A DNA stretch of 64,000 nucleotides from Candidatus Saccharimonadales bacterium (lineage in GTDB: Bacteria; Patescibacteriota; Saccharimonadia; Saccharimonadales; JACDBH01): positions 2,259 through 66,258 of the forward strand of contig JBGSWE010000006.1 in assembly GCA_041752595.1 (NCBI GenBank), in the 5' to 3' direction. Positions 2,556 through 45,354 of the stretch are shown one piece after another. The notes beneath the pieces were generated by a model. That model ran no database searches, had not been told where the DNA came from, and saw only the letters and a program-made list of their open reading frames with translations. The number at the start of each line of letters is the position of its first letter. Positions within the stretch are counted from its first letter, which is position 1. The translations under genes were made by a program, and so were the position numbers.

Positions 2556-2607
2556 AAAATCCGGAACTCACTGTATCTAGAATACACTTCAAGTTCCGGA
2601 TTTTTTG
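2556..2607. terminator. bidirectional rho-independent terminator between convergent hsp20 and the pilin operon
   Basis: aaaaatccggaac ... gttccggatttttt: a 10-bp stem flanked by an A run and a T run. Confidence 0.7.
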
Positions 2608-2703: not shown

Positions 2704-3156
2704 CTAGGCAGCTATTACGCGGCCAAGTACAAAGCGCACAATAGTTTGTGACAGTGCAACTATAATTAAACCTATGATTGCATAGAGGATGGTGTTTTTG
2801 GCACTTGATACGTTAGTACTATCGCCAGCAGAGGTAATATATTTGAATCCTCCAATTATGATCATGATTACCGCTACAACACCAACTATCACAGAAAATA
2901 GGTTGATAACGTCGCCAATAAGATCATTAATAGCTTGTGTGGCCTCTTCAGCCGACAGACCGGTGTTGCAAGTAGTTGTAACATCCAGATTAGCACCAGC
3001 GCAGAGACTGTTTTGAATTTCGGCAGTAGTAGCAGTAGAGGGTGGGGCGTCTGCCTCTTGTGGTGGGGTTGTGGACTGGGCAGAGACAGATGTCACACTT
3101 AAGATAACTGTTAATCCAGTCAATAAAGTGGCTGACAAAATTTTAGTAAATGACAT
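2704..3156 (-). CDS. T4SS pilin-like protein (TrbC/VirB2-like), paralog 7
   Basis: Signal peptide (..VTSVSAQS), a two-Cys loop (CAGANLDVTTTC) and a C-terminal TM-loop-TM with GGFKYITSAGDSTNVSSAKNTILYAIIGL. Confidence 0.75.
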   Translation of the reverse strand: MSFTKILSATLLTGLTVILSVTSVSAQSTTPPQEADAPPSTATTAEIQNSLCAGANLDVTTTCNTGLSAEEATQAINDLIGDVINLFSVIVGVVAVIMIIIGGFKYITSAGDSTNVSSAKNTILYAIIGLIIVALSQTIVRFVLGRVIAA

Positions 3157-3196
3157 AATGAACTTATTATATCATATTTTTGCTGAGTGTGAATAC

Positions 3197-3670
3197 CTAA
3201 GCAGTAACTCTAGAAAGTACAAACTTAACGATGAACTGAGACAAGGCTACTATGACTAGACCGATAAGCGCATAGAGGATAGTGTTTTTAGCTGTACCAA
3301 CCTTGTTGCTGTCACCAGCAGAGGTGATGTATAGGAAGCCACCAACGATAATCATGATTACCGCTACAACACCAACAACAACTGAGAAGATGTTTATAAC
3401 ATCTGCTATTAGGCTGTTAACGTTATCGCCGGCACCTGCAGTTGCAGTTGCACAATCTGTTCCGTCTGCGCTAAATTCTAAAGTTGAACCTTCACAAACA
3501 TTGCCTTGAATATCTGCTTGTGCACTTACGCTAACTGCTGACAAAGAAGGGACGGCAACCAATAGGCCAAAGGCTGCGACTGTAATTAGTTGTTTGATTT
3601 TTTGTAACACTGTTTTATTTCCTTGTTTAATTATATCTTTAACATTATTTATACATTGAAAGCATACCAA
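3197..3670 (-). CDS. T4SS pilin-like protein, paralog 6
   Basis: Same architecture (CEGSTLEFSADGTDC; GGFLYITSAGDSNKVGTAKNTILYALIGL). A GTG at 3610 preceded by AAGGAA is an alternative, more signal-peptide-like start. Confidence 0.7.
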   Translation of the reverse strand: MVCFQCINNVKDIIKQGNKTVLQKIKQLITVAAFGLLVAVPSLSAVSVSAQADIQGNVCEGSTLEFSADGTDCATATAGAGDNVNSLIADVINIFSVVVGVVAVIMIIVGGFLYITSAGDSNKVGTAKNTILYALIGLVIVALSQFIVKFVLSRVTA

Positions 3671-4138
3671 TTACAAGCTTGTGATTGCAAGTGTTGTAAT
3701 GATGCTTGCTTCAGGTGGTGGTGGAGAGGTGGCCTCTTTTAGAACAAACTGCACTATCACTTGTGCAAAAACCGCTATAACTAGACCTACTAATGCAAAA
3801 ACTATGGTGTTTTTGGCGCTACTAACCTTGTTGGAATCACCTGCAGACGTTACATATCTAAATCCACCAAAAATCACCATAATAACCGCAACCACACCTA
3901 CGATAACAGATAGAATGTTTATAACGTCGGCAATAATACTTTCGATAGTTGCGGCGGGTGTAGCATCCGAACTCACACAGCCACCCCCGGGATCGGCTTG
4001 CAGCCCAAGACCCTGGCAGGCGGCTGATTTATTAGCGTCACTCACCTGGGCAGAAACTCCACCAACCAACACGCTTAGCAGTAAGGTGACCGTTATTGCC
4101 AATGTTATTAAGATATTGCTTTTTAAACTATTTATCAT
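3671..4138 (-). CDS. T4SS pilin-like protein, paralog 5
   Basis: Signal peptide, CQGLGLQADPGGGC loop, GGFRYVTSAGDSNKVSSAKNTIVFALVGL, and a Pro-rich tail. Confidence 0.75.
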   Translation of the reverse strand: MINSLKSNILITLAITVTLLLSVLVGGVSAQVSDANKSAACQGLGLQADPGGGCVSSDATPAATIESIIADVINILSVIVGVVAVIMVIFGGFRYVTSAGDSNKVSSAKNTIVFALVGLVIAVFAQVIVQFVLKEATSPPPPEASIITTLAITSL

Positions 4139-4148
4139 TTTTGAACTC

Positions 4149-4529
4149 CTATAATCTTCCTATGACGAATATTATTATTGATTGTGATAGTACGGCTAAC
4201 AAGAGTCCGGCAACAGCATAAAGGATGGTGTTTTTGGCAGAATTAACTTTGTTGGCGTCACCAGCAGAGGTGGTGTACTTGAGCCCACCAATAATTACCA
4301 TGATAACCGCCGCAACACCTACAAATATCGAAACTATTTGGGCCGCTCTAAGAATTATGCCGTTTGAGCCTGTTACTGGATCTTCTTGTGGCTGGCATAC
4401 AGCGGAGTCTTGTACGCCGTTACTGCAAACCTGTTCAAATGGATCTAATTGCGCAGATACAGGTATAGAAATTGCCATAATTAATAACAAGCTTAGTGAC
4501 GATATTGCTACTAGAATTTGTTTTAACAT
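4149..4529 (-). CDS. T4SS pilin-like protein, paralog 4
   Basis: Signal peptide (..IPVSAQL), CSNGVQDSAVC loop, GGLKYTTSAGDANKVNSAKNTILYAVAGL. Confidence 0.75.
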   Translation of the reverse strand: MLKQILVAISSLSLLLIMAISIPVSAQLDPFEQVCSNGVQDSAVCQPQEDPVTGSNGIILRAAQIVSIFVGVAAVIMVIIGGLKYTTSAGDANKVNSAKNTILYAVAGLLLAVLSQSIIIFVIGRL

Positions 4530-4531
4530 GT

Positions 4532-4828
4532 TTATATTCTCTCAATCACAAATGTTACTATTGCAAACCCAGACAAAGTAATTGCAAGGCCTATACAAGC
4601 ATAGATTACTGAATCACGAGCTTTTTTAACGCCAGCTGGATCTCCTTGGGATATTGTTAGCTTAAATGCGCTAATAGCAATAACCAGCACAGCTACAGCA
4701 GCAGCTACGCCGAAAAATAACTGAAGCCCATCCGTTAAAACGGGTTGGGTCAACGAATCTTTTGGAATATTTACACTATCACGTGGTATTGAGACTGTTT
4801 GTGCAATGAATTTATGTATATTTATCAT
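4532..4828 (-). CDS. divergent pilin-like two-TM protein, paralog 3
   Basis: It lacks the Cys loop and an obvious cleavable signal but keeps the TM-loop-TM core (AFKLTISQGDPAGVKKARDSVIYACIGL). Confidence 0.55.
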   Translation of the reverse strand: MINIHKFIAQTVSIPRDSVNIPKDSLTQPVLTDGLQLFFGVAAAVAVLVIAISAFKLTISQGDPAGVKKARDSVIYACIGLAITLSGFAIVTFVIERI

Positions 4829-4843
4829 GATTTATTTATAATC

Positions 4844-5305
4844 TTAACTTGTTATTGAACTTGCAACAAAGGCAACTATTCCTGTAGCTAGTAGTGAAAT
4901 AACCAAACCAATAAGTGCGTTTTGTATTGTTTGCCTTGCCGATGCGGCATTATCCGGCTCACCCTGAGAAGTTATAAACTTAAAACCTCCAATAAGCACG
5001 AACACTAGCGCAACAATTGTAGCGACTCGTAATAAGATTTCGATTAGTGCTAAGGCTATCAAACCAGATGCTGCCTGCCAATCAATTTCTCCATCTGTGG
5101 TTGCTGGACCGATAATTGCACAACGGTCACCGTCTCTGGGGCCAATTTCGAGATATCTGTACCAAGTCGGGAAACCCAAAAATGATGCTGAGCCGTCACA
5201 GTCCGCTGCAACTTGAGCGTAAGTTTTTGCAGGCACTACAACAACGTTAGTAAAAACTAAACTGATGGTGATTATTGCAATAACAACCAGATATCTCTTT
5301 ATCAT
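4844..5305 (-). CDS. pilin-like protein, paralog 2
   Basis: Signal peptide, two Cys (DCDGS...DRCAI), FPTWYRYL motif, and the core GGFKFITSQGEPDNAASARQTIQNALIGL. Confidence 0.65.
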   Translation of the reverse strand: MIKRYLVVIAIITISLVFTNVVVVPAKTYAQVAADCDGSASFLGFPTWYRYLEIGPRDGDRCAIIGPATTDGEIDWQAASGLIALALIEILLRVATIVALVFVLIGGFKFITSQGEPDNAASARQTIQNALIGLVISLLATGIVAFVASSITS

Positions 5306-5727
5306 GTTAGCACCCCGCCTGGCACTAAGTAATTTAGGAATCCATACATAAATATAAAGAACAAAAGTGCAATGATTGAATTCCTAATGCGATCCTTGGC
5401 AGCAGAGACTTTTTGCGGATCGCTACCTGCAGAAGAGTACTGAATGCCTGCAAATATCAACGATCCAGCTATTACCACTCCTACAATACCGCTCAAAACG
5501 TTAATGAATAACACTATGTAATCAAGAATGCCGCAGTGATCATCACTACCTTCTGGGGCACCGGCTCTTATGTTATCTCCTTGACAGTCATTTTTTACAA
5601 GCTGTGGCTGATCGCTAGGTGGTGGCGTTGTTTGGGCCATAACTTGTAATGGCATTGCAACAAAAATCGCCCCAACAAGGAGGGAGATGCTAAGTAATGA
5701 AAGTTTTTGTATTTTTGATAACAACAT
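5302..5727 (-). CDS. pilin-like protein, paralog 1 (first gene of the minus-strand operon)
   Basis: Signal peptide (..QVMAQT), two Cys (DCQGDN...DDHCG), and the core AGIQYSSAGSDPQKVSAAKDRIRNSIIAL. ATGA overlap with the next gene. Confidence 0.65.
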   Translation of the reverse strand: MLLSKIQKLSLLSISLLVGAIFVAMPLQVMAQTTPPPSDQPQLVKNDCQGDNIRAGAPEGSDDHCGILDYIVLFINVLSGIVGVVIAGSLIFAGIQYSSAGSDPQKVSAAKDRIRNSIIALLFFIFMYGFLNYLVPGGVLT

Positions 5728-5821
5728 GTAACCGTATTCTACCTTAACAATTATTGAGCGTCAAAAGCTGTGATGTTCAGGTGCTGTAGATATAACCTAT
5801 ATGTGATATATTTAAGCGTAA

Positions 5822-8668
5822 ATGAACCGTATAAAAAAACTTGGGCTAGGTCTGTTCACGTTAAGTTTATTGTTTTCGCTGCTATCTTTAGTCGCTCCTA
5901 ATAAAACTTACGCCCAGGCCGGAGCTGGCGCATGGGTGGATGCCGGCCATATTACGAGTGGAGGGGTTACATACATTGACGTCAATCCTTTTGACGACAC
6001 CTGGAGCTACAGAGCTAGTGGCATTCAGGGAGGCTGTACAAGTGTTATTGAGGGCTTCGATAGTGGTGGAGGAAGAAACCCATTTTCACAAGATGGCTTT
6101 CTTAGCAGCGCAACTATAACTATTGCTGTGCAAGATGTAGTTAATGATAGATGTGATAGAACCTCCCAAACTATTCAACTTTCTAGCGCAAACCCAAATC
6201 AAAAGATAGGATTTAATTGGGTTGATGGTGGAACAATACAAAGCCCTATAGATGGCTCTAGTTATGTCCAAGACGCTACCAATACTAGCTTATTCATAGC
6301 AGAAACAGAAGGTAATTGTCGTAGTACGGTCACGGTTGTTGGAAATACAAGTGCAATATTTATAGGAAGGACTAATGCTCTTGGCGATTGTCAAGAACTT
6401 GGAAGATACGACGCCAACATTGGCCAACCAGCAAATCGCGCCTTAGCTGCTGGATCGGGCACACCGACAGGTGGCCCAGATGATGCAGCGGCCGTTGATG
6501 ATAATAGCTGTGAAAGCAAAAGCGGGGTAATGGGGTGGATACTTTGCCCTGTAATTACAGCTCTTGATGGCTTGTTTAACTGGATAGATACCCAGATACA
6601 AGCACTTTTAGAAATAGATGAATCCCGCTACACTGACGAGAACCTAAAACGAGCCTGGTCAAATATTCGTAATATCGCCTACCTAATCCTGATACCCATT
6701 ATGTTGGTTATGGTTATAGGTACTGCGCTTGGTTTTGAAATTTTTAGTGCCTATACAATCAAAAGGGCCTTGCCGCGCATGGTAATAGCGGTCATATTTA
6801 TTACACTTTCTTGGTACATAGTTACGTTTTTGATTGGACTATCAAACGTCGTTGGTACGGGTACTCTTGGGATAATTACAGCACCTTTTAGATCTATTCA
6901 GCCGGCAGCATGTCAAGATGGTCCATTAACACTAAGTTGTTTATTTAGTGCTCCGGGTTATAGCGACGGTGTAGGTGGTGGAGACATTTTACAATCAATT
7001 CTTTTACTTCCGCAGGCGGCGGCAGGAATAATTGGACTGGTCGTATTCTTGATTTTATATGGAGGAATGCTAATTATTGCGATTGGTGCAGGATTTCTTG
7101 TGTTGCTTGCCAGGCAGTTATTCCTGTTGGCGCTTATATTAGTTGCACCACTGGCAATTCTGGCTTGGATATTTCCTGGTAACGACGGTTTATGGAAGGC
7201 TTGGTGGAGCGTCCTGTCTAAGCTTCTTTTGATGTTCCCTTTAATCATGTTATTGATTGGTGTTGGTCGTATTTTTGCATTAATTATTAACGAGGCAGGA
7301 GGCGGAGGCTTAGAGGGAACACTTCTTAATCCTATCCTGAAGCTAGGGGCATACATACTACCCTACGCAGCCATACCTTTGACGTTTAAATTCGCTGGAG
7401 GATTGTTTGGCAACTTAGCAGGTGTTGTTAATAACAAAGAAAAGGGTCTCTTCGACCGTTACAGAAACTTACGAAATGCAGGTCTCAAAAAAGGTAATGA
7501 ATCATTGATGGATAGCAAGGGTAGATTCGGCTCAAATGATAGTAAGGTGGGTAATTCATACCGTAGAGCGGCAAGCTTTGGTAGACGAGGAAGCTTGAGC
7601 CCGTTTGCGGGTGGTAAGGCTAGGTGGCAAGATTACAATGAGCTTCACAGAGATAAAACAGCTGACGGCATGATTGAAGAAGGTGGTCAGCGAGGATTTA
7701 ATGATGATGACGCTTCAGATCTAGCAGCTAGAGGTTATGGCAGGAATGAATTTATTGAAAGATATCAGTTCCAGCAAGATCGTGATGGCAATTATGCAAC
7801 CGACGCAAGTGGAAATAGAGTGCGCAGGCATTCACTTCAAGAGGCTCAAGCAGCATTAGCAAGAACAGAGCAAGCAGTAGGAGCGAGAGTTGGAAGTTCG
7901 TCAATGACCGTTGCAGCACAGAAATTCCGTACCTCTATGACAAATACCGCCTACGAAGCAGGACCAGAGGGTCTAGAAGCTCTCCAGCGAGACCTCGTAA
8001 GATTACAAGGCCAGGGGCTAGTCACGGCTGTTGATGCTGCAGGATGGATGAAGGCAAACCGTGGTAGAGCAGACTATAGTGCGAATAGTTTTGGTGACAC
8101 AGTAGCTTTTGCAGCCGGCCAAAGACAAGACGGAACAGCATATACAGCAGATATGCAACTTGCAGGAGCCTTCAAAGGGGCTGATCCTCGAGAAGTTGTT
8201 GGCGGACATCAGCGAGCACTCGAATCATTTTCCATACAAGCTCAACGAAACCTGGATAGCGCACTACAATCTGGGAGCCAAGCTGAGACAGATAAGGCAC
8301 TTGCCGATGTTGCAAACGTATACGATATGCTAAGTAATGTATCTCCTAAAAAAGGAAATGAATTTGCCGACCGGGTCATGTCTCAAGGCGTCATACAAGT
8401 ACCTGTATGGGATTCTTCGGGTGAACGTATTGATGCATCTGGCAATCGAGTTGAAATCATTGATGCATCTGGCAATCGAGTTGCGAACACAGCTGCAGGT
8501 CCACCAGCATATCGTAAGGTTAATACCACTGTGAGAGAAATAATGAATGAAGCCAAGAACCGTCCTGCAGGGCCCAATGGTCAACAAACATTCCTCGATC
8601 GCAGACGTGAATTTAGCCAAGCAGAAAGACAGCAAAGAGAAGCTCAGGGCGCACCCGAAGAAAGTTAG
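5822..8668 (+). CDS. VirB6/TrbL-like polytopic T4SS membrane protein (948 aa) with Cys-rich ectodomain and long charged tail
   Basis: Signal peptide, a Cys-containing N-terminal domain of about 230 aa, a cluster of hydrophobic helices at roughly aa 280-530, then a hydrophilic C-terminal half. The assignment rests on position and topology, not on a diagnostic motif. Confidence 0.55.
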   Translation: MNRIKKLGLGLFTLSLLFSLLSLVAPNKTYAQAGAGAWVDAGHITSGGVTYIDVNPFDDTWSYRASGIQGGCTSVIEGFDSGGGRNPFSQDGFLSSATITIAVQDVVNDRCDRTSQTIQLSSANPNQKIGFNWVDGGTIQSPIDGSSYVQDATNTSLFIAETEGNCRSTVTVVGNTSAIFIGRTNALGDCQELGRYDANIGQPANRALAAGSGTPTGGPDDAAAVDDNSCESKSGVMGWILCPVITALDGLFNWIDTQIQALLEIDESRYTDENLKRAWSNIRNIAYLILIPIMLVMVIGTALGFEIFSAYTIKRALPRMVIAVIFITLSWYIVTFLIGLSNVVGTGTLGIITAPFRSIQPAACQDGPLTLSCLFSAPGYSDGVGGGDILQSILLLPQAAAGIIGLVVFLILYGGMLIIAIGAGFLVLLARQLFLLALILVAPLAILAWIFPGNDGLWKAWWSVLSKLLLMFPLIMLLIGVGRIFALIINEAGGGGLEGTLLNPILKLGAYILPYAAIPLTFKFAGGLFGNLAGVVNNKEKGLFDRYRNLRNAGLKKGNESLMDSKGRFGSNDSKVGNSYRRAASFGRRGSLSPFAGGKARWQDYNELHRDKTADGMIEEGGQRGFNDDDASDLAARGYGRNEFIERYQFQQDRDGNYATDASGNRVRRHSLQEAQAALARTEQAVGARVGSSSMTVAAQKFRTSMTNTAYEAGPEGLEALQRDLVRLQGQGLVTAVDAAGWMKANRGRADYSANSFGDTVAFAAGQRQDGTAYTADMQLAGAFKGADPREVVGGHQRALESFSIQAQRNLDSALQSGSQAETDKALADVANVYDMLSNVSPKKGNEFADRVMSQGVIQVPVWDSSGERIDASGNRVEIIDASGNRVANTAAGPPAYRKVNTTVREIMNEAKNRPAGPNGQQTFLDRRREFSQAERQQREAQGAPEES
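8429..8483 (+). repeat. in-frame tandem duplication (30-bp period) inside the VirB6-like tail
   Basis: attgatgcatctggcaatcgagttg at 8429-8453 and again at 8459-8483. It encodes IDASGNRVE-IIDASGNRVA. Confidence 0.9.
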
Positions 8669-8762
8669 AAAGTTTATAATATTGCATATTAGCGTATAAT
8701 ACAAAAGTATTTAGATGCTGTTGTGTTTAGGTATGTTCTTCCCTACGACAAAGGAGTTGGCA

Positions 8763-9179
8763 GTGACAGAAAGCGATAGTGCTACGGGTTTTGCTGCGTT
8801 TGGCTTTGCATCAATCGTTTTTACCTTGGTGTTTGGTATAGGTTTTGTGTTAACAGTAGTTCTGGCAAATCTTGTACATGCTTCATTTGATAATGATACA
8901 GTTCAGGTCTTTGCTGTGATTGGTGGATTACTGTTGGCATTTTGTGGACTACTACTCGGCCTGGTTATTTCATCGAAAAGCTACGAATATTTTAAAGTAA
9001 GAGTAGAAAACAGCTTGGCAGAAAAAACACTTGGATTATCTGTAGTAGTACTAGTTTTCGGAGTCTTTGCAGCTGCAATTTTTGCAGCCTTTGCACTCTA
9101 TGTTATGGTTATGATTGCAATAGTTGTAGCTGTGTTCTTGGTCTTCGTGCTGTTACTAGGTGCGTTGTTCGGAGCCTAG
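8763..9179 (+). CDS. small multi-TM membrane protein, function unknown
   Basis: Four hydrophobic segments. GTG at 8763 is preceded by AAGGAG (8751-8756). The track ORF starts at 8715. Confidence 0.5.
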   Translation: MTESDSATGFAAFGFASIVFTLVFGIGFVLTVVLANLVHASFDNDTVQVFAVIGGLLLAFCGLLLGLVISSKSYEYFKVRVENSLAEKTLGLSVVVLVFGVFAAAIFAAFALYVMVMIAIVVAVFLVFVLLLGALFGA

Positions 9180-9384: not shown

Positions 9385-10599
9385 ATGGCAACGTACAAGG
9401 TACTTCAAGACATTGAGGCTGATGATAAGTTATTAGGCCCACTCTCGCTCAAGCAGTTTATATTTGCAGCGATGTTTGTTGGTATCGGCGTAGCGATGTT
9501 TTTTATTGCTACCAGCCCAGCGCCAACATTTCTTAAGGCACCACTAATAGTTGTGTTATTTTTCCCAATGCTTTTAACCGGCTTTTTGGCGGCACCGATT
9601 AGCCGCGACCAGCCAAATGAAATTTGGCTACTGGCGAGGATTAGTTTTATGTTTAGACCACGCAAACGCATCTGGAACCAAGACGGTGTAAAAGAACTTG
9701 TAACAGTCACCGCACCAAAAAAAATTGTACATATATACACAAACAATTTATCTCAGTCAGAAGTTAGGAGCAGACTACAAGCGCTAGCTAATACTGTTGA
9801 TAGTCGTGGGTGGGCGGTCAAAAACGTTAACACTAATCTTTTTGCACAACCAGGCTACGCTGTTGATGGCGCTACTTCGGACAGATTAATATCGCCAATG
9901 TCTTTGCCCCAAGAGGTTTCAATTACAGACGTGACTGAGTCAGATGACATGCTTGATATCGCCAATAATTCTACAGCTGCACACCTAGATCAATTAGTTC
10001 AAGAATCTACTGCCGCTCAACGCCAACATGCATTATCGGCCATGAAACCAGCCGACCCCAAGGCCCAACCAACACCTAACGATTATTGGTTTATGAACCA
10101 GGCTGGGCCAACCCCGCAAATGCCTATGCCGACAGATTATTCAGTGTTCCAGGGTCAGCAAGTTGTGGCGCCCGGTACCGATGATTTGCAACCAACTGCA
10201 GAAGCCACCGCCGAAGAACAAGCACTAGTAAAAAAGATTGCTGCGGATAAGAAAGAGGCAAAATCTCATATCAAGGACCATATGCGTGTTTTGCAACCGA
10301 TTCATGATCATGACGGTAATCTTATCGACGCCGAAGAGCCTGAGCCAGAACCAAAACTTAACGAAGTAGATCCATATTTAGCTATGGCGGGCTTTGTTCC
10401 AAACAATCCAGTTCCTGTAGCACCAGTTCCGGTGGCAATAGATAATTCCGAACTACAAGATAAAACCCAGGTACCTGCAACCCCTAATCCTGCTATAATG
10501 GGGCTTGCTAGTAATGATGATTTAAACATTGCAACAATCGCCCGACAAGCAAAGCGCATCAGCGAAGAAGACGGCGAGGTTGTAATATCATTGCATTAA
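9385..10599 (+). CDS. PrgI/VirB3-like T4SS membrane protein with long Pro-rich C-terminal region
   Basis: The N-terminus YKVLQDIEADDKLLGPLSLKQFIFAAMFVGIGVAMFF followed by a second TM resembles the Gram-positive PrgI-family signature. It lies upstream of virB4, as VirB3 does in canonical systems. Confidence 0.55.
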   Translation: MATYKVLQDIEADDKLLGPLSLKQFIFAAMFVGIGVAMFFIATSPAPTFLKAPLIVVLFFPMLLTGFLAAPISRDQPNEIWLLARISFMFRPRKRIWNQDGVKELVTVTAPKKIVHIYTNNLSQSEVRSRLQALANTVDSRGWAVKNVNTNLFAQPGYAVDGATSDRLISPMSLPQEVSITDVTESDDMLDIANNSTAAHLDQLVQESTAAQRQHALSAMKPADPKAQPTPNDYWFMNQAGPTPQMPMPTDYSVFQGQQVVAPGTDDLQPTAEATAEEQALVKKIAADKKEAKSHIKDHMRVLQPIHDHDGNLIDAEEPEPEPKLNEVDPYLAMAGFVPNNPVPVAPVPVAIDNSELQDKTQVPATPNPAIMGLASNDDLNIATIARQAKRISEEDGEVVISLH

Positions 10600-17008: not shown

Positions 17009-18859
17009 ATGTTTTGGTTAGCGTTAAAGAAAAATATCCGGCGACTAGCTGTTCTTTTAGTGCTGGTTGTTTTTTCGACTAACACAGTTGCCTTAGCGCT
17101 TACACCAGAACAAAAGAGGCTAATAGATTCAGGAGTGCGTGAATTTAATATAGAAGCTGATGCCGAGTGTAATACTACGGGTAGTGGGTCTAGTAGTGGG
17201 TCGGTTTATATGCTGGGTGACTCAATTACTGTCCGTTCTACACCCGCACTACAAACCGCTTTCCAAACCAACAATCAACCTCTGCAGAAAATCAACGCCG
17301 CTGTAGGTCGTTCAATTACAGCTCCGGGTGAGGGAACCGAGACTGGATTACAGGTTCTCTTGAGTGATGCATCCGATATCGCCGCCTCTGGATCTGTAGT
17401 TATTGCTCTTGGCACCAATCCTTCCGGTGCTAATGAAGACGGCGTTAGGCAAGTATTTAACGCAGTTAGAGCTTCTAATCCCTCGGCGAGAATATTTTGG
17501 GTGAACATATTTTCACCCGCCGCCATCAACAGGGAGTCATTTAATCAAACTTTGGTTACTCTATCTTCAAGTTTAGGTTTTACGGTTATAAATACTAACT
17601 CCGCTGGAATTGAGATGGTTAGTGACGACATACACCCAAGCACAAATGGCTCGGCAACTTTTGCCCAAACAGTTGCCGCAGGACTAAGTGGTGGCTCTAG
17701 TGTTGTGTCAGCAACTGGGTGTGCTTGTAGTTTAGGTGGTAGCTTGGGTGGTAGCCTAGATCGTAACACTCGCTATCAAGCTACCTGGGCTTACTTTATA
17801 GAAAAAGGTTTATCGCCTGAAGCTACTGCTGGACTTATGGGCAACCTAGAAGCTGAGTCAGGGATTGACCCTCAAAACACTCAAAATAACGCACCAGCAC
17901 CGGATGGTCCAGAAATACCGATTGATGCAATTCGTGGAAGGTTTGGTTATGGTATCGCCCAGTGGACAAGCGCCGGTAGACAAGACAACCTTATTGCCTT
18001 TGCGCGTCAAACAAATAGATCAACTGGTGACTTAGGCTTGCAGCTTGATTTCCTTTGGAAAGAACTTTCAGAAAGTTATACTGGTGTATTAACAGTATTA
18101 CAGACACCCGATGTCAGCTTAGCCGAATCATCTGCAGAAGTGTTATTGCGTTTTGAGATACCAGCCTCTGTACTCGGGGGTGCAGCAGAAAGACAGGCAA
18201 CAATTCTAGCTAGACAAAGGCTTGGTGAGGCAATATTTAATGAATTTTCCGGTCAGACAATTTCTAGCAGCACGGGTGCAGGTTGTAATACAAGCGGAGT
18301 AGCAATTGATCTCACCGATACAGACACAACCGATATTGTTTGTGGTGCTGGTACCGTAGATTCAGGCAACGCCCAAGGCTATAGAGATGGTCAGGTTATA
18401 CAAATAAGGTTGTGTCAGGTGGGCGGTACCAGAATAAACTCACAGCTTGCTGGTTCTATAGCTCGCATGTTGTCTGACGCATCATCAGCAGGAGTAGCAC
18501 TAGGAATTAACGGTGGATTTCGTGATATGCAGGGCCAAATAGATATATATAACAGTTGGTGCGGTAGAGCAGGCATTACCCCAACCCCGCCACCTTATCC
18601 TAAGACACAAAGGTCAGATTATCAGTCTTGTCCGGGTGGTGCCCCGCCAGGCTATTCAAACCACCAACAAGGTTTAGCCGTTGATTTAGAGTGTAATGGC
18701 CAGCTTATTGCTCAATCCTACACATCCGCTCAAAATAATCCATGTTTCCAGTGGCTAGTAGCTAATGCTAGTAAATATGGTCTTTATGAGTTTGGTAAAG
18801 GCCAAGACAGAACTCGAACAGGATATGAAGCCTGGCACTGGTCAGTGGATGGAAACTAA
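17009..18859 (+). CDS. secreted tri-domain cell-wall hydrolase: SGNH/GDSL esterase-like + phage-tail-lysozyme-like + M15 (VanY-type) peptidase-like
   Basis: Signal peptide. SGNH blocks VYMLGDSITV and DDIHPSTNG. Lysozyme-like GLMGNLEAESGIDPQN...GYGIAQWT. M15 signature GYSNHQQGLAVDL ... EAWHW. Confidence 0.65.
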   Translation: MFWLALKKNIRRLAVLLVLVVFSTNTVALALTPEQKRLIDSGVREFNIEADAECNTTGSGSSSGSVYMLGDSITVRSTPALQTAFQTNNQPLQKINAAVGRSITAPGEGTETGLQVLLSDASDIAASGSVVIALGTNPSGANEDGVRQVFNAVRASNPSARIFWVNIFSPAAINRESFNQTLVTLSSSLGFTVINTNSAGIEMVSDDIHPSTNGSATFAQTVAAGLSGGSSVVSATGCACSLGGSLGGSLDRNTRYQATWAYFIEKGLSPEATAGLMGNLEAESGIDPQNTQNNAPAPDGPEIPIDAIRGRFGYGIAQWTSAGRQDNLIAFARQTNRSTGDLGLQLDFLWKELSESYTGVLTVLQTPDVSLAESSAEVLLRFEIPASVLGGAAERQATILARQRLGEAIFNEFSGQTISSSTGAGCNTSGVAIDLTDTDTTDIVCGAGTVDSGNAQGYRDGQVIQIRLCQVGGTRINSQLAGSIARMLSDASSAGVALGINGGFRDMQGQIDIYNSWCGRAGITPTPPPYPKTQRSDYQSCPGGAPPGYSNHQQGLAVDLECNGQLIAQSYTSAQNNPCFQWLVANASKYGLYEFGKGQDRTRTGYEAWHWSVDGN

Positions 18860-19604: not shown

Positions 19605-20663
19605 CTAGCCCAGAGGAATAACTCTGCAGTTATTAAGGAATGTTTGAACCACTACATCGGCGTCGGTGGTGGTTATGAATGTTTGATATCTTTGCAGGTG
19701 ATCAGTTAGTAGGTGCCTACGCTTGCCGTCGAGTTCACTAAACACATCGTCTAGTAGCAATAGTGGTTTTTGGCCGCGTTGGTTTTCTAGTAGTTGTAGT
19801 TCAAAAACCTTAAGAGCTAGAAGGGTGGTGCGGGTTTCTCCGCGCGAGGCAACCTCGGCAGCAGGATGACCATTATAACTAACCAAAAAATCGTCTCTAT
19901 GTGGCCCGTAAGACGTAAATCCGCGTATTTTGTCTTGTTCAAGCGAGTTTTCTAGTGCCTGCATAAGTGTTGTTTCGTAGTTATCGATTGGTAATTTGCT
20001 AACATATTTAATACTCATGTCGGTTTTTTTATTGCCAGCAATTTCGTTATATAGGCTCGGTAGCGCTAGTTGAATTTCGTTTATAAGCTCGTTGCGGTGC
20101 CTGGCAATAACACCACCCAGCTCACTAAGCCTAAGGTTCCAAACAAAAAACTGTTCGCTTGGTGGATTATTGTGACTTTTTAATAAGGCATTTCGTTGAG
20201 TTAAGACTCTCCTATATTGCTTTCGCAGGTTCTTGAACTCGGGTATGGTTTGTTCTAGTAGGTTATCCATATAAAGCCTGCGTTGTTCTGGTTGACCATG
20301 CAAAAGCTGTAAATGATTAGGTTCAAAAAGTACTACTGGCAGTGTATTTTTAAGTGTTAGAATTTTATATGGTTTTTCTTCAAACACGTAGTTTTTGGTT
20401 AGACGACCGTTTTCTAATGAAATTTTTAGCGTTCTTATATCAGAATCATTTGCCGTGTCTATTCTTGACCAGTTTTTTTCAAACTGCACCAGCTCGTCGT
20501 CTTTAGCTCGATAAGACGATCCAATACACGACGTTAGAATTGCTTCTAACAAATTAGTTTTTCCACTACCGTTCGGGCCAACAATAATATTAACTCCCGC
20601 CTCAAACTCAAAAGAATCATCCACGTAGGAGCGAAAGTTTTGCAAACGGATACTTTGAATCAT
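19605..20663 (-). CDS. recF: DNA replication/repair protein RecF
   Basis: MIQSIRLQNFRSY..., Walker A GPNGSGKTNLLEAI, Walker B LLLLDDVFSELD. Synteny with dnaN-dnaA. Confidence 0.9.
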   Translation of the reverse strand: MIQSIRLQNFRSYVDDSFEFEAGVNIIVGPNGSGKTNLLEAILTSCIGSSYRAKDDELVQFEKNWSRIDTANDSDIRTLKISLENGRLTKNYVFEEKPYKILTLKNTLPVVLFEPNHLQLLHGQPEQRRLYMDNLLEQTIPEFKNLRKQYRRVLTQRNALLKSHNNPPSEQFFVWNLRLSELGGVIARHRNELINEIQLALPSLYNEIAGNKKTDMSIKYVSKLPIDNYETTLMQALENSLEQDKIRGFTSYGPHRDDFLVSYNGHPAAEVASRGETRTTLLALKVFELQLLENQRGQKPLLLLDDVFSELDGKRRHLLTDHLQRYQTFITTTDADVVVQTFLNNCRVIPLG

Positions 20664-20685
20664 TAGTCTTATTATAGCTCAGTCG

Positions 20686-21777
20686 CTATGAGCGAAGTGG
20701 CATGACTATGTGTTTATAGTCAGTGTTTTTTGGATCTGATAGTAATGATGGGTCAAGTTTTCCGTTGAACTGCAATGTAACTTTATCTCCGCTAAGCACA
20801 TGTAATGCGTCTAATAGATACCTTGAGTTAAGTGTAACCTCGCCGCTACCAACAACTTCTGCACTAGCACTGGCGGTATTTTCGCCGAGCTGTGAGGCGA
20901 TAGAATTAATACTAACTTGCTTAGACACTTCATCAACTTTAATAGTTACACTTCCGGCACTTTCGCGTGCAAACAGTGATGATACTTTAGTGATGTTTGT
21001 AAAATCTTCTTTAGAGAGTGTTGCTATAACTTCAAATTTACTAGGAATAAGCTTCCTATAATCTGGATATGCTCCGTCAATTAATCTAGAAACTAGCTCT
21101 ACTTCACCAACACGGAATAATACCTGTTGTTCGTCGTGAGTTATACTAACTGTTTCTTCGCCGTCACCCAAAATGCGCAGTAAATCTTGCATAGCTCCAG
21201 CAGGAATAAGTAAAGATACTTTGTCTTTGTTTTTTAGTAAGGCTTTTTCAGCTAGTCGATAACTGTCGGTTGCTACCAAATAAAGCATGTTATCAAAACT
21301 ATGCAGATAAACACCAGTTAGAACAGGTCGGGCTTCGTCGCTAGAAGCTGCCATTACTGTTTGTTGCAATCCTTTTTTAAGAACTGATGCTGTAATTTCA
21401 AAACTTGTACCTTTAGAAATCGCTGGCATAACCGGAAAATCGTCTGCTGCAATTCCGTTGATTGTAGATTTGTATTGGTCTGCTGTTATATGAAGTTTGT
21501 GCTCGTCTAGCTCAAGACTTATAACGCCACTTGGTAAGCTAGCTACAAAATCTTGCATAAGCCTAGCAGGAACAGTTATAGAGCCTTCTGATGAAACCTT
21601 TGATCCAATGTACTGAGTTATAGCAATGTCTAAATTAGTAGCAGAAACACTTAGTCGGTTGTCTACTGTCTTTAAAAGAACGTTACTTAGTATAGGAAGA
21701 GTGTTCCTAGTATTAGCAATTCGTGCGACTGCTCCGAGTGCTTTGCTTAGGTTTTCCTGGGTGACTTGTAATTTCAT
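20686..21777 (-). CDS. dnaN: DNA polymerase III beta sliding clamp
   Basis: The 363-aa length and three-domain pattern are typical (MKLQVTQENLSKAL...ILSNVLL...). It lies directly downstream of dnaA. Confidence 0.9.
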   Translation of the reverse strand: MKLQVTQENLSKALGAVARIANTRNTLPILSNVLLKTVDNRLSVSATNLDIAITQYIGSKVSSEGSITVPARLMQDFVASLPSGVISLELDEHKLHITADQYKSTINGIAADDFPVMPAISKGTSFEITASVLKKGLQQTVMAASSDEARPVLTGVYLHSFDNMLYLVATDSYRLAEKALLKNKDKVSLLIPAGAMQDLLRILGDGEETVSITHDEQQVLFRVGEVELVSRLIDGAYPDYRKLIPSKFEVIATLSKEDFTNITKVSSLFARESAGSVTIKVDEVSKQVSINSIASQLGENTASASAEVVGSGEVTLNSRYLLDALHVLSGDKVTLQFNGKLDPSLLSDPKNTDYKHIVMPLRS

Positions 21778-22065
21778 TAATTTATCCCTTTATTTGAATA
21801 GTTATCATATATATAAGCCCTGTGTATAGTGTGTACAACCAACGATTTAACAGATGTGAATGTGGTATAAGATTGTTCAAAAACTGTATACAAAAATGGT
21901 TGCAGTAGTGGGATAAAAACCGTCTTCTTGGATGATTTATGCACCGCCTTTTGTGGCATCGTTAGGTGCATGTGTACAAGCCTAGTAGTCTTCAAGACGT
22001 TTGTGTGCAGTCTATGCCCAGGCTTTCCACAGAGCCAAAACACATTATCAGAAATTAAGTATTTT

Positions 22066-23436
22066 TTAAGCATACAAACGCTCCTTAATTTCGCTAACGT
22101 GCTGGCGAATTATTGCATCAAAGGTAAGTTCTTTTTCAACCTTTTCTACTGAATGAATAGCCGTAGTGTGATCTTTGCGGCCAAGTTCGCGGGCAATCTT
22201 AGGAAAACTAAGATGCAGCTCACTGCGTAATATATACATTGCGATTTGGCGGGGAACTACTATATCTTTATCTCTTTTTGGTCCTAAAATGTCCTCCAAA
22301 GAAATTTGGAAATGCTTACTGACTCGTTCGACAACCTGGCGTGCGCTCAAGTGTTTTGGCCTAGTCTTGTTTGCACTTAATAGGCTAGACACGATAGCAA
22401 CATCAGGCTCTAGGTTTCGCATTTCACAAAAAGCAATTAGTTGATTAAGAGCCCCTTCAAGTTCACGAATATTTGTTTGAATATGGTTAGCTAAATAATC
22501 CACAACATCACTTGGCAAAATTATGCCAAGAACCTCTGCTTTAGATTGAACAATAGCACAGCGTGTTTCAAAGTCAGGGTTCTGCATATCAATGCTCATG
22601 CCCCATGCAAAACGGCTGCGCAAACGCTCTTCTAGTGTTGGGATATCTTTTGGTGGTTTGTCAGAACTAATAATTATCTGTTTGTTAGCTTGGTGTAGGG
22701 CGTTAAAGGTATGAAAAAATTCTTCCTGAGTTTTGTCTTTACCAGCAATAAACTGCATGTCATCAATTATTAACACATCAGCATTTCTATAGTATCCCGC
22801 AAAGTCGGTGTTTTTCTTGTACCTAACTGCGTCAATAAATTCCTGAACAAATTGCTCAGTCGACACGTAGACAATTCTTGCACCGGGATTCTTTTCTGCG
22901 ACTGCATTTCCAACCGCTTGAATCAGGTGAGTTTTGCCAATTCCTACACCACCATACAAAAATAGCGGATTATATTTGGTGCCAGGGTTTGCGGCAATTG
23001 CTTGGCAAGCAGCGTGGGCAAGTTCGTTACCAGAACCAACTATAAAACTATCAAAAGTGTATTTTTCGTTCAGACCCTGCCTGTAGCTATGGCTTAACGA
23101 GTTGCTCATATTTGGTCTTACTGGGTCAGAAGCAGTTACTGTATTTAGGCTCAGTGGTTCGTCGTAGCTTCGTTGTCGGTTAGCAGAAATATCGCTATGG
23201 ATTTTATACTCTACGCTCTCAGGATTAATATTGTTTTTGGCCAAAGTTTCAACTATTAGATCGTTGTATTTACGCTCTAGTTGTTGTTTTACAAAAACAT
23301 TCGGTACGCCAATTGTCAGGACTTCGTCTTTGAATCTAAGTAGCTTAGTGCTTTTAAACCAGGTTACGTAATTTCCGTGAGAAACAGACAGCTCGATTTC
23401 GCCTAAGACTGCCTGCCATAATCTATCGTCCTGCAC
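22066..23436 (-). CDS. dnaA: chromosomal replication initiator DnaA
   Basis: AAA+ Walker A GGVGIGKTHL, DVLIIDDMQF, and the C-terminal DNA-binding helix-turn-helix (...HTTAIHSVEKV). Confidence 0.95.
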   Translation of the reverse strand: MQDDRLWQAVLGEIELSVSHGNYVTWFKSTKLLRFKDEVLTIGVPNVFVKQQLERKYNDLIVETLAKNNINPESVEYKIHSDISANRQRSYDEPLSLNTVTASDPVRPNMSNSLSHSYRQGLNEKYTFDSFIVGSGNELAHAACQAIAANPGTKYNPLFLYGGVGIGKTHLIQAVGNAVAEKNPGARIVYVSTEQFVQEFIDAVRYKKNTDFAGYYRNADVLIIDDMQFIAGKDKTQEEFFHTFNALHQANKQIIISSDKPPKDIPTLEERLRSRFAWGMSIDMQNPDFETRCAIVQSKAEVLGIILPSDVVDYLANHIQTNIRELEGALNQLIAFCEMRNLEPDVAIVSSLLSANKTRPKHLSARQVVERVSKHFQISLEDILGPKRDKDIVVPRQIAMYILRSELHLSFPKIARELGRKDHTTAIHSVEKVEKELTFDAIIRQHVSEIKERLYA

Positions 23437-31871: not shown

Positions 31872-33016
31872 TGGCAGACGTAGTTGTAAAAGTTGAGAAT
31901 GTTCATAAATCATTTAAACTGCCACATCAAAAACACAATTCAATCAAGGGACTGTTTCTGAATGCGTTTAAGGGTAGTGATAGGTACGAAAACCAAAAGG
32001 TGCTTAAGAACATAGATTTTGAAGTAAATAGAGGTGATTTTATTGCTATCGTTGGCCGTAATGGTTCGGGTAAGAGCACACTACTTAAGCTACTCGCGGG
32101 TATCTACACGCCTGACAGAGGCTTAATACACGTTAACGGAAAACTTATACCGTTCATTGAACTGGGAGTTGGCTTTAACCCCGAACTTACTGGCAGAGAA
32201 AATGTATTCCTTAACGGCGCTCTACTCGGTTTTAACCGCAAAGAAATGCTCGCAATGTATGATGATATTGTAAGTTTTTCTGAAATAGAAAAATTCATGG
32301 ACCAAAAACTCAAAAACTATTCTTCTGGTATGCAGGTGCGTCTTGCATTTTCTATTGCGATACGCGCTAGGGGTGACATTCTTTTGCTTGATGAAGTACT
32401 TGCGGTTGGTGACGCAGCTTTTCAACAAAAATGCTTTGATTATTTTGAACAATTGAAGCGCGAGAAAAAAACAGTTATATTTGTGTCGCATGACATGACA
32501 GCTGTTCGTAGATTTTGTAATAAAGCAATCTATGTAAGCAAAGGCGTTCTTACTCATGCAGGAACACCAGCTGAGGTATCAGATATTTATTCAGTAGATA
32601 ATATTGAAAATACGATTGACGGTTCACGCATCACAACCGAGGGAGTGGGTAATTATAAACTTTCTCCAAAAATAAAACATGAATCAGACAAAGAGGTAAT
32701 AATTGAATTTACATTCAAATCTCAAACAGACGAGGATTTATATATAGCACTCTCTATACTAAAAGATGGAAATTCAGTTGCTGAGATGAACTCTTTAGGC
32801 TATTTGAAGCTAAAGCAAAAAGGTGTTGCTGAGTTCAAAATAGATAAGACTCGGTTCAACGCCGGCGTATACGAATTAACCTGCATAATATGTAGGCAAA
32901 AAGATAAACACCTTATGTCAATAGGTACTAAAAACCTAACTTTCACCGTTAGCTCCGAAGACGATACTCGTGGAGCAGCTCTTTGGCTAGATAATACTTG
33001 GCATAAATTGAAATAA
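31871..33016 (+). CDS. ABC exporter ATP-binding protein (Wzt/TagH-like) with extra C-terminal domain
   Basis: Walker A GRNGSGKSTLLK, signature YSSGMQVRLAF, Walker B ILLLDEVLAVGD, plus about 130 additional C-terminal residues. Confidence 0.85.
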   Translation: MADVVVKVENVHKSFKLPHQKHNSIKGLFLNAFKGSDRYENQKVLKNIDFEVNRGDFIAIVGRNGSGKSTLLKLLAGIYTPDRGLIHVNGKLIPFIELGVGFNPELTGRENVFLNGALLGFNRKEMLAMYDDIVSFSEIEKFMDQKLKNYSSGMQVRLAFSIAIRARGDILLLDEVLAVGDAAFQQKCFDYFEQLKREKKTVIFVSHDMTAVRRFCNKAIYVSKGVLTHAGTPAEVSDIYSVDNIENTIDGSRITTEGVGNYKLSPKIKHESDKEVIIEFTFKSQTDEDLYIALSILKDGNSVAEMNSLGYLKLKQKGVAEFKIDKTRFNAGVYELTCIICRQKDKHLMSIGTKNLTFTVSSEDDTRGAALWLDNTWHKLK

Positions 33017-33020
33017 ATGA

Positions 33021-33797
33021 CTAAGAATAATCTTTAAACTCAAAATCAGCAGATTTTTTATGGTACCAAGTTTCTTTGTGGGATTTTTCTGTTCTCATTT
33101 TTGTGTAAGGGTGATTAGGGTCGCTATATAAATCCCAAGTTAAATGCAGCGCTTTTGATTTTTTGGTACGCGCCCATTTTTTGCCGATAACATCGTAGCA
33201 ATAACGGTGCATTTCACTATCAACAAGGGATAGATTGTTTAAGTTTTTCCATTTTATAAAGTCGGCAAACTCACCACCCCTTAAAATAAGTAAATGACCA
33301 CCCGTGTATGCTTCATAGTAATATTTATTAGAACGCATATCCGGAGGTATCCAGTTAGTAGATTCAGGAAAAGCCAAAATAGGGAGGTTTTTCATGTCTA
33401 GGCTTATTCCGCACGCAAATACATCAGAGTTCTTCTCGAGTATAGAGAGCTCCTCCGTTAACCAACTATTGTCTTTTGATATCAAATCACCATCAGTGAG
33501 GATAACGTATTTACGTTTACTAATTTTGGTTAGCTCCAGATTTACGATCGTATCGTATGCATTTCCAGTAATATTTTCACTAAATAGATAATACCTACTT
33601 ATGTACCCCTTTTTACCGTAATTTTCAACTAAGTTCTTGATATGATTTGTATTTGCGCTTGGATTCTCAATAATAACAATCTCGAGCCAGTCAGAAAATT
33701 TTGTTAGAAAACGAAGGCTTTTCTCGATAATTTCTATTTGATCAAAAACCAAAACGTAGCACAAAACTCTTTCTTTAGGCTTTTTTCTTAATAGCAT
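33021..33797 (-). CDS. hypothetical protein, GT-A-like glycosyltransferase fold suspected
   Basis: VLVFDQIEIIEKSL...VIIENPSANT...VILTDGDL follows the layout of a nucleotide-sugar-binding and DxD region. I could not assign a family. Confidence 0.35.
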   Translation of the reverse strand: MLLRKKPKERVLCYVLVFDQIEIIEKSLRFLTKFSDWLEIVIIENPSANTNHIKNLVENYGKKGYISRYYLFSENITGNAYDTIVNLELTKISKRKYVILTDGDLISKDNSWLTEELSILEKNSDVFACGISLDMKNLPILAFPESTNWIPPDMRSNKYYYEAYTGGHLLILRGGEFADFIKWKNLNNLSLVDSEMHRYCYDVIGKKWARTKKSKALHLTWDLYSDPNHPYTKMRTEKSHKETWYHKKSADFEFKDYS

Positions 33798-33886
33798 TAT
33801 CTGATTATAAGGTTTTTATCATATAATTAGGTATGGATAATAAAAAAACAATGAATTAATGACCTTAAGACCAAGAGAAAAATATT

Positions 33887-36842: not shown

Positions 36843-36858
36843 TTCAAGGAGAGTAGTA

Positions 36859-37404: not shown

Positions 37405-37406
37405 TA

Positions 37407-38471: not shown

Positions 38472-38483
38472 TTTAACACCTAA

Positions 38484-41048: not shown

Positions 41049-41087
41049 TGTAATTATTCTAACAGATTACAAGCTACATTCTAAACG

Positions 41088-42800: not shown

Positions 42801-42802
42801 AA

Positions 42803-43399: not shown

Positions 43400-43535
43400 A
43401 GACTAATTTTATATTTTTATTTTGTTAATAGGTACTTTAACCATAACCTAAATTGAATATTAATACAATAGAATATAGGAGTTATTTGGCCTTAATAAAA
43501 TAAATAAGATTTATAACTTCATTGATATTGAACTA

Positions 43536-45245: not shown

Positions 45246-45354
45246 TGTTAATTTTTATTGTAACAGACGTAAATAGTTTGTTAGTAAATTAAGTGAAATA
45301 TAATTATCAACAATATTCTTTAATAAATTAGGAAAACAATAATAAAATCTATAA

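Follow-up and report, generated by a model that had tools for sequence, protein, structure and literature searches.

Seven tandem pilin genes in the type IV secretion locus of a Saccharimonadales bacterium: evidence for an ordered, class-structured cassette

Why should a type IV secretion system (T4SS) be encoded with seven pilin genes in a row? The question is raised by a 64,000-nucleotide stretch of the genome of a Candidatus Saccharimonadales bacterium (GenBank assembly GCA_041752595.1, contig JBGSWE010000006.1, positions 2,259 to 66,258 of the forward strand), referred to here in its full length as the window, in which seven consecutive intact open reading frames (ORFs) span positions 2704-5727 of the minus strand in the ORF listing. 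The T4SS of the Saccharibacteria is essential for epibiotic growth, and its pilus has never been seen. The assignment of the seven genes to the T4SS_pilin family, as paralogs of a conserved Saccharibacteria cassette, is well supported, and their comparison with related loci argues for a kit of six fixed parts, in which one class is transcribed separately and can be amplified, and not for a variable repertoire. The sequence-only reading of this DNA had presented the multiplicity of pilin genes as a departure from the norm of a single pilin, whereas arrays of this type are the rule in the Saccharibacteria and have already been published, the present locus being a further example. The genes are listed below from the divergent promoter outward, under the class numbers that emerge from the comparison.

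5302..5727, minus strand: pilin class 1, 141 aa, with a signal peptide, a short ectodomain containing C48 and C65, and a transmembrane (TM) hairpin; PF18895 score 34.8 bits
4844..5305, minus strand: pilin class 2, 153 aa, its start overlapping the class 1 stop by 4 nt; PF18895 score 30.8 bits
4532..4828, minus strand: pilin class 3, 98 aa, a two-TM hairpin only, with no signal peptide and no ectodomain cysteine; PF18895 score 30.4 bits
4149..4529, minus strand: pilin class 4, 126 aa, a signal peptide followed by DPFEQVC...AVC, with a 9-residue cysteine loop; PF18895 score 31.3 bits
3671..4138, minus strand: pilin class 5, 155 aa, loop CQGLGLQADPGGGC; PF18895 score 42.3 bits
3197..3610, minus strand: pilin class 6, copy a, 137 aa from the GTG at 3610, loop CEGSTLEFSADGTDC; PF18895 score 48.8 bits
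2704..3156, minus strand: pilin class 6, copy b, the extra seventh gene, 150 aa, loop CAGANLDVTTTC; PF18895 score 54.1 bits

All seven proteins exceed the gathering score of PF18895 (T4SS_pilin), which is 26.6 bits, while PrgI/VirB3, VirB4 and lysozyme/VanY hydrolase genes are found within 14 kb of the array, and a VirB6-like gene adjoins it. Together with the hairpin, these matches bear out the earlier claim of seven tandem pilin paralogs of the VirB2/TrbC superfamily within a T4SS locus, whose core does match a T4SS pilin profile. Membership of the TrbC/VirB2 family PF04956 (gathering score 27.9 bits) is not supported, since this profile is matched only below threshold by two genes, 2704 and 3197, which score 25.5 and 25.6 bits (E about 1.5e-5), and not at all by the other five; a precomputed PF04956 match is present on many class 5 and 6 homologues in the protein database. 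The NCBIfam family NF045849, the Mbov_0395 pilin-like conjugal transfer protein of the integrative and conjugative elements (ICEs) of Mycoplasma, has a cut-off of 40 bits, which is passed by the 2704 gene (42.1 bits), with the other six scoring 21.5-39.5 bits. A profile search finds only these seven pilin genes in the window, with no silent, partial or pseudogene copies. Outside the window, look-ups of the exact proteins found only two Logan contigs, each of them short and in 100% agreement with it.

The architecture is largely shared. Based on hydrophobicity, there are three hydrophobic segments (signal peptide, TM1 and TM2) in six of the genes and two in 4532..4828, and the same six have exactly two cysteines in the ectodomain, the single cysteine of the 4532 gene being located in TM2. 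A longer ORF is ruled out for the latter gene by an in-frame TAA two codons before its ATG. The signal peptide attributed earlier to each of the genes is therefore present in six, the remaining gene having been set apart by the same reading, and the cysteine counts agree with those claimed, including the lack of a cysteine loop in 4532..4828. The six predicted signal peptides have n-, h- and c-regions ending in V/S-x-A|Q, and all of them finish with the dipeptide A-Q (VSAQ, YAQ or MAQ). The 4532 gene begins with MINIHKFIAQT, as if the cleavage motif had been kept and the hydrophobic region lost. In the related genomes, A-Q lies near the end of the signal peptide in only about 15-50% of the orthologues, depending on the class.

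The intergenic gaps within the array, as first called, are -4, 15, 2, 10, 0 and 40 nt. The start of the 3197 gene is most likely the GTG at 3610, rather than the TTG at 3670, because the former has an AAGGA ribosome-binding site and yields a product of 137 aa, the length of a protein in the database (P0122), and because the near-identical leader of a related locus (L011) ends in GTG. With this start, two N-terminal cysteines prove spurious, the mature part of the protein has exactly two cysteines, and a 60-nt spacer is opened upstream.

The same features bear on the oldest interpretation of such arrays. Given their N-terminal signal peptides and their position beside T4SS genes, the proteins of the equivalent "secreted protein array" of TM7x were originally read as Sec-secreted effectors by McLean et al. 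(2020), by analogy with the pertussis toxin, so that they would represent effector or toxin subunits exported by the T4SS, in the manner of S1-S5 and the Ptl system. In the window, however, the signal peptides are followed by two further hydrophobic helices, and the proteins match T4SS_pilin, with no toxin or enzyme domain detected in either Pfam or NCBIfam. The similarity to Ptx S1 cited in favor of the analogy amounts to 11% identity (McLean et al. 2020), and in later papers the same proteins are treated as pilins instead. Both the pair of TM helices and the pilin profile speak against the toxin-subunit explanation, which is largely refuted and can be given almost no weight.

To place the seven genes in a wider context, 79 related loci were retrieved with the VirB6-like alignment, all from metagenome-assembled genomes, most of them labelled as Saccharibacteria or Saccharimonadales and a few with other or generic labels, and a hidden Markov model built from the seven window proteins was run against all of their ORFs. 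Where the upstream sequence is long enough, almost every locus shows five to eight pilin genes, with a mode of 6, immediately next to the VirB6-like gene and divergent to it. Taken in order from the divergent promoter, the first three window genes are the reciprocal best hits of the genes at positions 1, 2 and 3 in 46/47, 47/47 and 37/47 genomes, respectively; the fourth maps mostly to position 4, and the last two both map to the final gene of the six-gene arrays. A classification of every pilin confirms the order 1, 2, 3, 4, 5, 6, 6 for the window. Arrays of seven and eight genes mostly add copies of class 6, whose number varies from one to three between genomes. Exceptions are found in L003 (7733-8746), where a duplicated class 1 gene lies 636 nt upstream, in L064, which reads 1, 2, 2, 3, 5, 5, 6, and in L081, which ends in 6, 5, so expansion is not strictly confined to class 6.

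Each class also retains its own architecture. Among the 36 six-gene arrays, exactly two ectodomain cysteines are present in class 2 in 30, in class 4 in 34, in class 5 in all 36 and in class 6 in 33, whereas class 3 is devoid of a signal peptide in 30 of them and of cysteines in 33. The ectodomain of class 1 is generally large and rich in cysteines, with a median of 105 aa in these arrays, in contrast with the short, two-cysteine version in the window. The loop motifs are specific to the class, that is, L-C-x-G-x-N-L...C in class 6, C-x-G-x-G-L...C in class 5, FDP..VC....AVC in class 4, and C..SFLGFPTWYKYL...C in class 2. As the loops cannot be aligned between paralogs, and the synonymous sites are saturated even in the core, a per-site ratio of nonsynonymous to synonymous substitution (dN/dS) was set aside for the loops, and the column identity among orthologues was used in its place. 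In the ortholog alignments, the cysteine columns have pairwise identities of 0.79-1.0 in nine of ten cases, the remaining value (0.29, for the first cysteine of class 6) being attributed to misalignment, while the ectodomain and loop columns reach 0.17-0.37, compared with 0.40-0.80 in the TM-loop-TM core, which is most conserved in class 6 (0.69-0.80). The earlier proposal that diversification is focused on the cysteine loop is correct insofar as the ectodomain is variable, but the variation is spread over the whole ectodomain, and each class keeps its own loop motif.

The array is, in sum, an ancient cassette of six paralog classes, maintained in a fixed order across the Saccharibacteria, in which extra copies arise almost only in class 6, represented here by the 2704 and 3197 genes. 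Its paralogs are not decaying in related bacteria, as all of the classes are intact and conserved in dozens of genomes, and six such genes were scored essential in Southlakia epibionticum. In the supplementary gene table of S. epibionticum ML1, covering SEML1_0003 to SEML1_0022 (Wang et al. 2023, Cell, PMC10633639), the six PF18895 genes are SEML1_0014-0019, and each was scored GD/ES/ES (essential) by transposon sequencing (Tn-seq). The gene order of the two loci agrees, one being the mirror image of the other (recF, hydrolase, VirB4, PrgI, VirB6-like, pilins, Hsp20, ComF-like phosphoribosyltransferase, tRNA-Ser), as do the six classes by position, with all members in PF18895, small genes that abut or overlap, and a long gap before the last class (83 nt in S. 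epibionticum, 60 and 40 nt here). They differ in the number of pilin genes, with seven in the window against six, due to the duplication of the terminal class, in the short class 1 ectodomain with two cysteines, and in the presence of one large VirB6-like gene between the array and PrgI, where S. epibionticum has both SEML1_0011 and SEML1_0013. The essentiality for epibiotic growth is known only from S. epibionticum.

The spacing of the genes separates the last class from the rest. In the six-gene arrays, the successive gaps have medians of -4, -4, -4 and 9.5 nt, followed by 71 nt (interquartile range 65-78) before the last gene, where the gap is at least 30 nt in 35 of 36 arrays; in S. epibionticum, it measures 83 nt. 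Common to the spacers is CTTGA...TGTGGTATAAGT, with AAGAAAGGT and the start codon some 30 nt further on. Of 48 spacers, 31 contain the motif TGnTATAA, compared with 0.6 expected from the background of the loci, and 27 the full TTGnnn-N13-16-TGnTATAA, compared with 0.15 expected, at a median of 33 nt from the start codon. The last class is thus apparently preceded by a conserved -35 and extended -10 promoter within a spacer of approximately 70 nt. In the window itself, the promoters and the terminator are putative, being motif or pattern matches.

5736..5764, minus strand: putative operon promoter, TTGACG-17-TAGAAT, with 10/12 consensus matches, lying in the 94 bp that separate the array from the divergent VirB6-like gene
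3647..3676, minus strand: putative internal promoter of class 6a, TTGTAA-17-TATAAA, with TG directly upstream, in the 60-nt spacer
3166..3193, minus strand: putative internal promoter of class 6b, TTCACA-16-TGaTATAAT, with 11/12 consensus matches and TG, in the 40-nt spacer
2559..2601, unstranded: hairpin with an A-tract on one side and a T-tract on the other, separating the array from the convergent Hsp20 gene; the 61-nt segment folds at -24.5 kcal/mol in RNAfold

The putative promoter in the class 6a spacer is a homologue of the one that the spacers of related arrays have conserved. The promoter-like site of class 6b ends 9 nt before the ATG, its distance to the start codon being counted as 10 nt, as against a median of about 33 nt, with AAGAAAGGT, in related arrays, and its mRNA may be nearly leaderless. 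No Shine-Dalgarno sequence is visible before the 2704 gene (window positions 3166-3196). The hairpin at 2559-2601 is probably a bidirectional terminator.

The explanation that appears to fit this material best, and which is considered probable, if by no means assured, is that the seven genes constitute the pilin cassette of an origin-adjacent, chromosomal T4SS of the monoderm type (MPF-FATA-like), in which class 6 would be the candidate major pilin and classes 1-5 the minor ones, the product being a pilus or a conduit. Class 6 is proposed as the candidate major subunit because it has its own conserved promoter and the most conserved core, and is almost the only class to be amplified, whereas classes 1-5 are regarded as minor and non-redundant because they have a fixed order, abut or overlap, differ in architecture, and were each scored essential in S. 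epibionticum. Of the two alternatives offered by the sequence-only reading, the heteropolymeric filament with several minor pilins is the one that agrees better with the fixed class order, the abutting or overlapping genes of classes 1-5 and the separate promoter before the last class.

According to this pilin-cassette model, six of the seven proteins would be inserted into the membrane by Sec/YidC and lose the signal peptide. Both ends of the protein would then lie outside, and its short charged loop (TSAGD..K..AKN) would be cytoplasmic at the membrane stage. By analogy with VirB2, VirB4 would extract subunits from the membrane pool and stack them on the VirB6-like platform. In the assembled structure, the loop would line the lumen, and the N-terminal ectodomain, putatively stapled by a disulfide, would decorate the outside. 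Class 6 (2704 and 3197) would provide the abundant structural subunit. Classes 1-5, expressed together and in few copies, would be non-redundant subunits with a role in initiating, capping or adapting the filament, with class 1, given its variable, cysteine-rich ectodomain, and class 2, with its FLGFPTWYKYL loop, being the best candidates for contact with the host. The resulting structure would support the essential role of the T4SS in epibiotic growth. This model points to class 6 as the candidate major subunit for tagging and imaging, and to the ectodomains of classes 1 and 2 for work on host binding, while the ordered classes, the conserved cysteine pairs and the internal promoter may be of use in studies of the essential Saccharibacteria T4SS.

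The loop of class 2 deserves separate mention. The two cysteines of this class enclose 25 residues that carry the conserved FLGFPTWYRYL, both cysteine columns are invariant, and the loop identity (0.37) is the highest among the classes. The FLGFPTWY(K/R)YL loop (window positions 4990-5190), with its approximately 25 residues bounded by cysteines, is the best-conserved extracellular element in the whole array, and orthologous loops occur in L016, L020, L025, L031, L034, L042 and L061, the last of these with the motif in the gene at position 1. The loop is a candidate site for assembly or binding. The class 5 gene has a different peculiarity, a 19-residue C-terminal tail (TSPPPPEASIITTLAITSL) after TM2 (window positions 3674-3730), which is lacking in the other six paralogs.

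The other alternative offered earlier was that of surface variation under host or immune selection. In this case, the paralogs would be alternative major pilins, equivalent in function and with diversifying loops, as proposed for the trwL genes of Bartonella and the virB2 genes of Anaplasma. Some of the observations are in keeping with a repertoire of this kind, in particular the ectodomains, which are the least conserved portions of the proteins, and the varying copy number of class 6, as well as the two class 6 copies of the window, which have cores with 80% identity and different loops. Against such a repertoire stand the six classes in fixed order with their near-universal reciprocal best hits, the class-specific architecture (such as the missing signal peptide of class 3 and the large ectodomain of class 1), the loop motifs retained across related genomes, and the individual essentiality scores of all six genes in S. 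epibionticum. In addition, no silent or partial copies accompany the seven genes. The reciprocal best hits at positions 1-3 are also at odds with rapid variation of the surface by gene turnover.

The age of the paralogs points in the same direction. A recent duplication among the four promoter-distal genes had been suggested on the basis of 26 identical nucleotides shared by the 2704 and 3197 genes. The exact match (GTTGGTGTTGTAGCGGTAATCATGAT, in TM1) is real, corresponds to eight identical codons, and is longer than expected in a permutation test (p = 0.0025), but the fraction of synonymous differences in the core (pS) is 0.65-0.76 for every pair of paralogs, and 0.75 for 2704 and 3197, which is saturated and contradicts recent duplication or amplification. 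What is left of the proposed gene conversion is, at most, a short conversion tract, for which local codon constraint is the alternative. Core dN/dS ratios within the window are 0.04-0.27, with dS saturated, and the paralogs are old and under purifying selection. Overall, classes 1-5 are unlikely to form a repertoire that varies rapidly, and as an account of the whole array such a repertoire is judged improbable, although the divergence of the ectodomains and the changes in the copy number of class 6 leave room for adaptation to the host.

This assessment differs from that of the main published survey. In the text of Quinonero-Coronel et al. (2025, Microb Genom, PMC12102498), a total of 441 arrays, each with 2-11 pilin genes, are reported from 383 assemblies that belong to the Candidate Phyla Radiation (CPR), being most abundant in the Saccharimonadia and Microgenomatia and close to dnaA, with a mean within-array identity of about 25% and a maximum of 54%. 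The window array fits this description through its position near dnaA and the 26-52% identity of its members to the first gene. The same text favors an analogy, in terms of host range and antigenic variation, with the VirB2 arrays of Bartonella and Anaplasma, and suggests versatility toward different host strains, which speaks for the repertoire; for classes 1-5, the analogy is not supported by the present comparison of sequences. As far as those systems are described there, the Bartonella Trw (trwL) and Anaplasma/Ehrlichia virB2 genes are likewise tandem VirB2-like genes of a T4SS that serves host interaction rather than conjugation, but they are lineage-specific amplifications, unlike the ancient, order-fixed and architecturally distinct classes of the window. 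Recently duplicated, near-redundant copies of the Bartonella or Anaplasma type were not found here, as dS is saturated for all pairs and the classes are conserved over 47 genomes. In the accessible main text of PMC12102498, the words "ortholog", "disulfide" and "signal peptide" do not occur, and no internal promoter is described. In a 2025 review, six VirB2-like pilins are described as conserved in structure and divergent in sequence, and a monoderm pilus is considered possible.

Comparison with the better-known pilins is similarly mixed. Like the VirB2/TrbC/TraA proteins of Gram-negative bacteria (PF04956), the window proteins have a putatively cleavable signal peptide (in six of the seven), two helices with a short charged loop, and VirB3, VirB4 and VirB6 as neighbors; unlike them, they are encoded in a monoderm, by six or seven paralogs instead of one, with a conserved cysteine pair in the N-terminal ectodomain, a sub-threshold profile match, no significant structural match, and no VirB5 identified. 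PrgF of pCF10 has been proposed (ter Beek et al. 2025 preprint, 10.64898/2025.12.18.695078) to be the VirB2-like pilin of Gram-positive MPF-FATA systems, with a VirB6 pentamer as its site of assembly. It shares with the window proteins the monoderm T4SS, the two-TM hairpin with a charged loop, and VirB6-like, PrgI and VirB4 neighbors, but is a single functional copy with neither signal peptide nor ectodomain, and thus resembles class 3 only. An hhalign comparison places the two hairpins in register over 64 columns, weakly, with a probability of 18%, and PrgF has no PF18895 match at E <= 1, with weak matches to Maff2 and DUF4134 only.

The predicted structure is compatible with a VirB2-like pilin and does not discriminate. 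The AlphaFold2 (AF2) model of the mature 2704 protein, based on an alignment of 67 sequences, has helices at 43-82 and 87-123 forming a hairpin, with a predicted local distance difference test (pLDDT) score of about 90 and an ectodomain of low confidence. Among its Foldseek matches, the conjugation pilus of Aeropyrum pernix (8dfu) ranked 13th, with E = 4.1 and a TM-score of 0.58 normalised by target length, helical hairpins not being discriminating in such searches.

A number of points weigh against the pilin-cassette model as a whole. Foldseek recovered no match to the AF2 model in the Protein Data Bank (PDB) at E <= 0.001, the best having E = 1.6, a PDB profile search gave no significant pilin, but only a designed protein at E = 0.86, and the TrbC/VirB2 Pfam scores fall below the cut-off. 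The disulfides in the cysteine pairs are putative, and the division into candidate major and minor subunits rests on promoter motifs and gene spacing. The pilin genes of S. epibionticum have only 11-15 insertion sites each (PMC10633639), and the essentiality of the upstream genes could, in part, reflect polar effects. Finally, cryo-electron tomography (cryo-ET) of N. lyticus assigned the filaments observed to type IV pili, and no filament has been attributed to a T4SS in the Saccharibacteria.

This last point is one argument for a structure without an extended pilus. The hairpin proteins would then build a short conduit or stalk, hetero-oligomeric and reaching across both membrane and cell wall, or else an integral part of the T4SS membrane channel, which would dock directly on the envelope of the host where epibiont and host are tightly joined. 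The 2704 gene matches the Mycoplasma ICE family NF045849 above its cut-off, and the wall-less bacteria that carry this family are not known to have pili. The cells live attached to their host, so a long filament may be unnecessary, and five types of subunit in equimolar amounts would be in keeping with a defined complex. The signal peptide, hairpin and charged loop, however, also define the VirB2 proteins that do form filaments, and a class 6 with its own promoter and a second copy suggests a demand for many copies of a single subunit. The conduit differs from the pilin-cassette model in length and geometry rather than in kind, and it is regarded as a real, if lesser, possibility.

A more specific form of the pilin-cassette model can be envisaged, in which classes 1-5 would be roughly equimolar and contribute one subunit each to a heteropentamer. 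On the VirB6-like platform, this would form a first layer, or tip, in place of the apparently lacking VirB5 pentamer, and class 6 would polymerise beneath, with host recognition residing in the cysteine-rich class 1 ectodomain and the FLGFPTWYKYL loop of class 2. This arrangement is speculative and rather unlikely, but if true, it would represent a pilus tip built entirely of diverged pilin paralogs in a monoderm T4SS.

The divergent operon on the opposite strand encodes the remaining recognizable components of the system.

5822..8668, plus strand: VirB6-like polytopic membrane protein, 948 aa, the first gene of the divergent T4SS operon; its homologs carry a precomputed PF19590 match
9385..10599, plus strand: PrgI/VirB3-like protein; PF12666, 43.9 bits
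11587..13497, plus strand: VirB4-like ATPase; PF19044 (TraG P-loop), 93.4 bits, and PF12846 (AAA_10)
17009..18859, plus strand: cell-wall hydrolase, with a VirB1-like role; lysozyme PF18013, 92.5 bits, VanY PF02557, 72.6 bits, and GDSL

After the VirB6-like gene, the order is PrgI/VirB3, a 288-aa protein, VirB4, a 973-aa protein, a PEGA protein, the hydrolase, recF, dnaN and dnaA. The 948-aa VirB6-like protein had no match in the local Pfam scan, even when relaxed, and no exact record in the protein look-up, its nearest relative being 49% identical; its gene occupies the position of SEML1_0013, which was matched to TrbL/VirB6 by Wang et al. Between this gene and PrgI, a very hydrophobic 154-aa ORF (8715-9179) has no family match, and S. 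epibionticum has at that position the second large VirB6-like gene, SEML1_0011, and the non-essential 278-aa SEML1_0012 (Wang et al. 2023, PMC10633639). Searches of the unannotated T4SS neighbors against PHROGs and with a relaxed Pfam scan returned nothing useful. Neither a type IV coupling protein (VirD4) nor a relaxase was detected among the window proteins scanned, which represent part of its ORFs.

As recF, dnaN and dnaA (19605-23436) directly follow the T4SS operon, the whole system sits at the replication origin, an arrangement noted previously in the literature for the T4SSs of the CPR. The other flank contains two tandem tRNA-Ser genes, at 530-622 (gct) and 643-732 (tga), a ComF-like phosphoribosyltransferase gene (on the minus strand, 1128-1622) and the gene for Hsp20 (2033-2518). 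SEML1_0020-0022 of S. epibionticum are arranged likewise, so the synteny extends beyond the T4SS. The remainder of the window consists of chromosomal housekeeping and polysaccharide genes. Within it, the G+C content falls to 0.34-0.37 over positions 32000-46000, compared with about 0.42-0.45 elsewhere, in a block with glycosyltransferase, PMT_2 and FG-GAP genes (38484-45245) that may represent an acquired surface-polysaccharide island.

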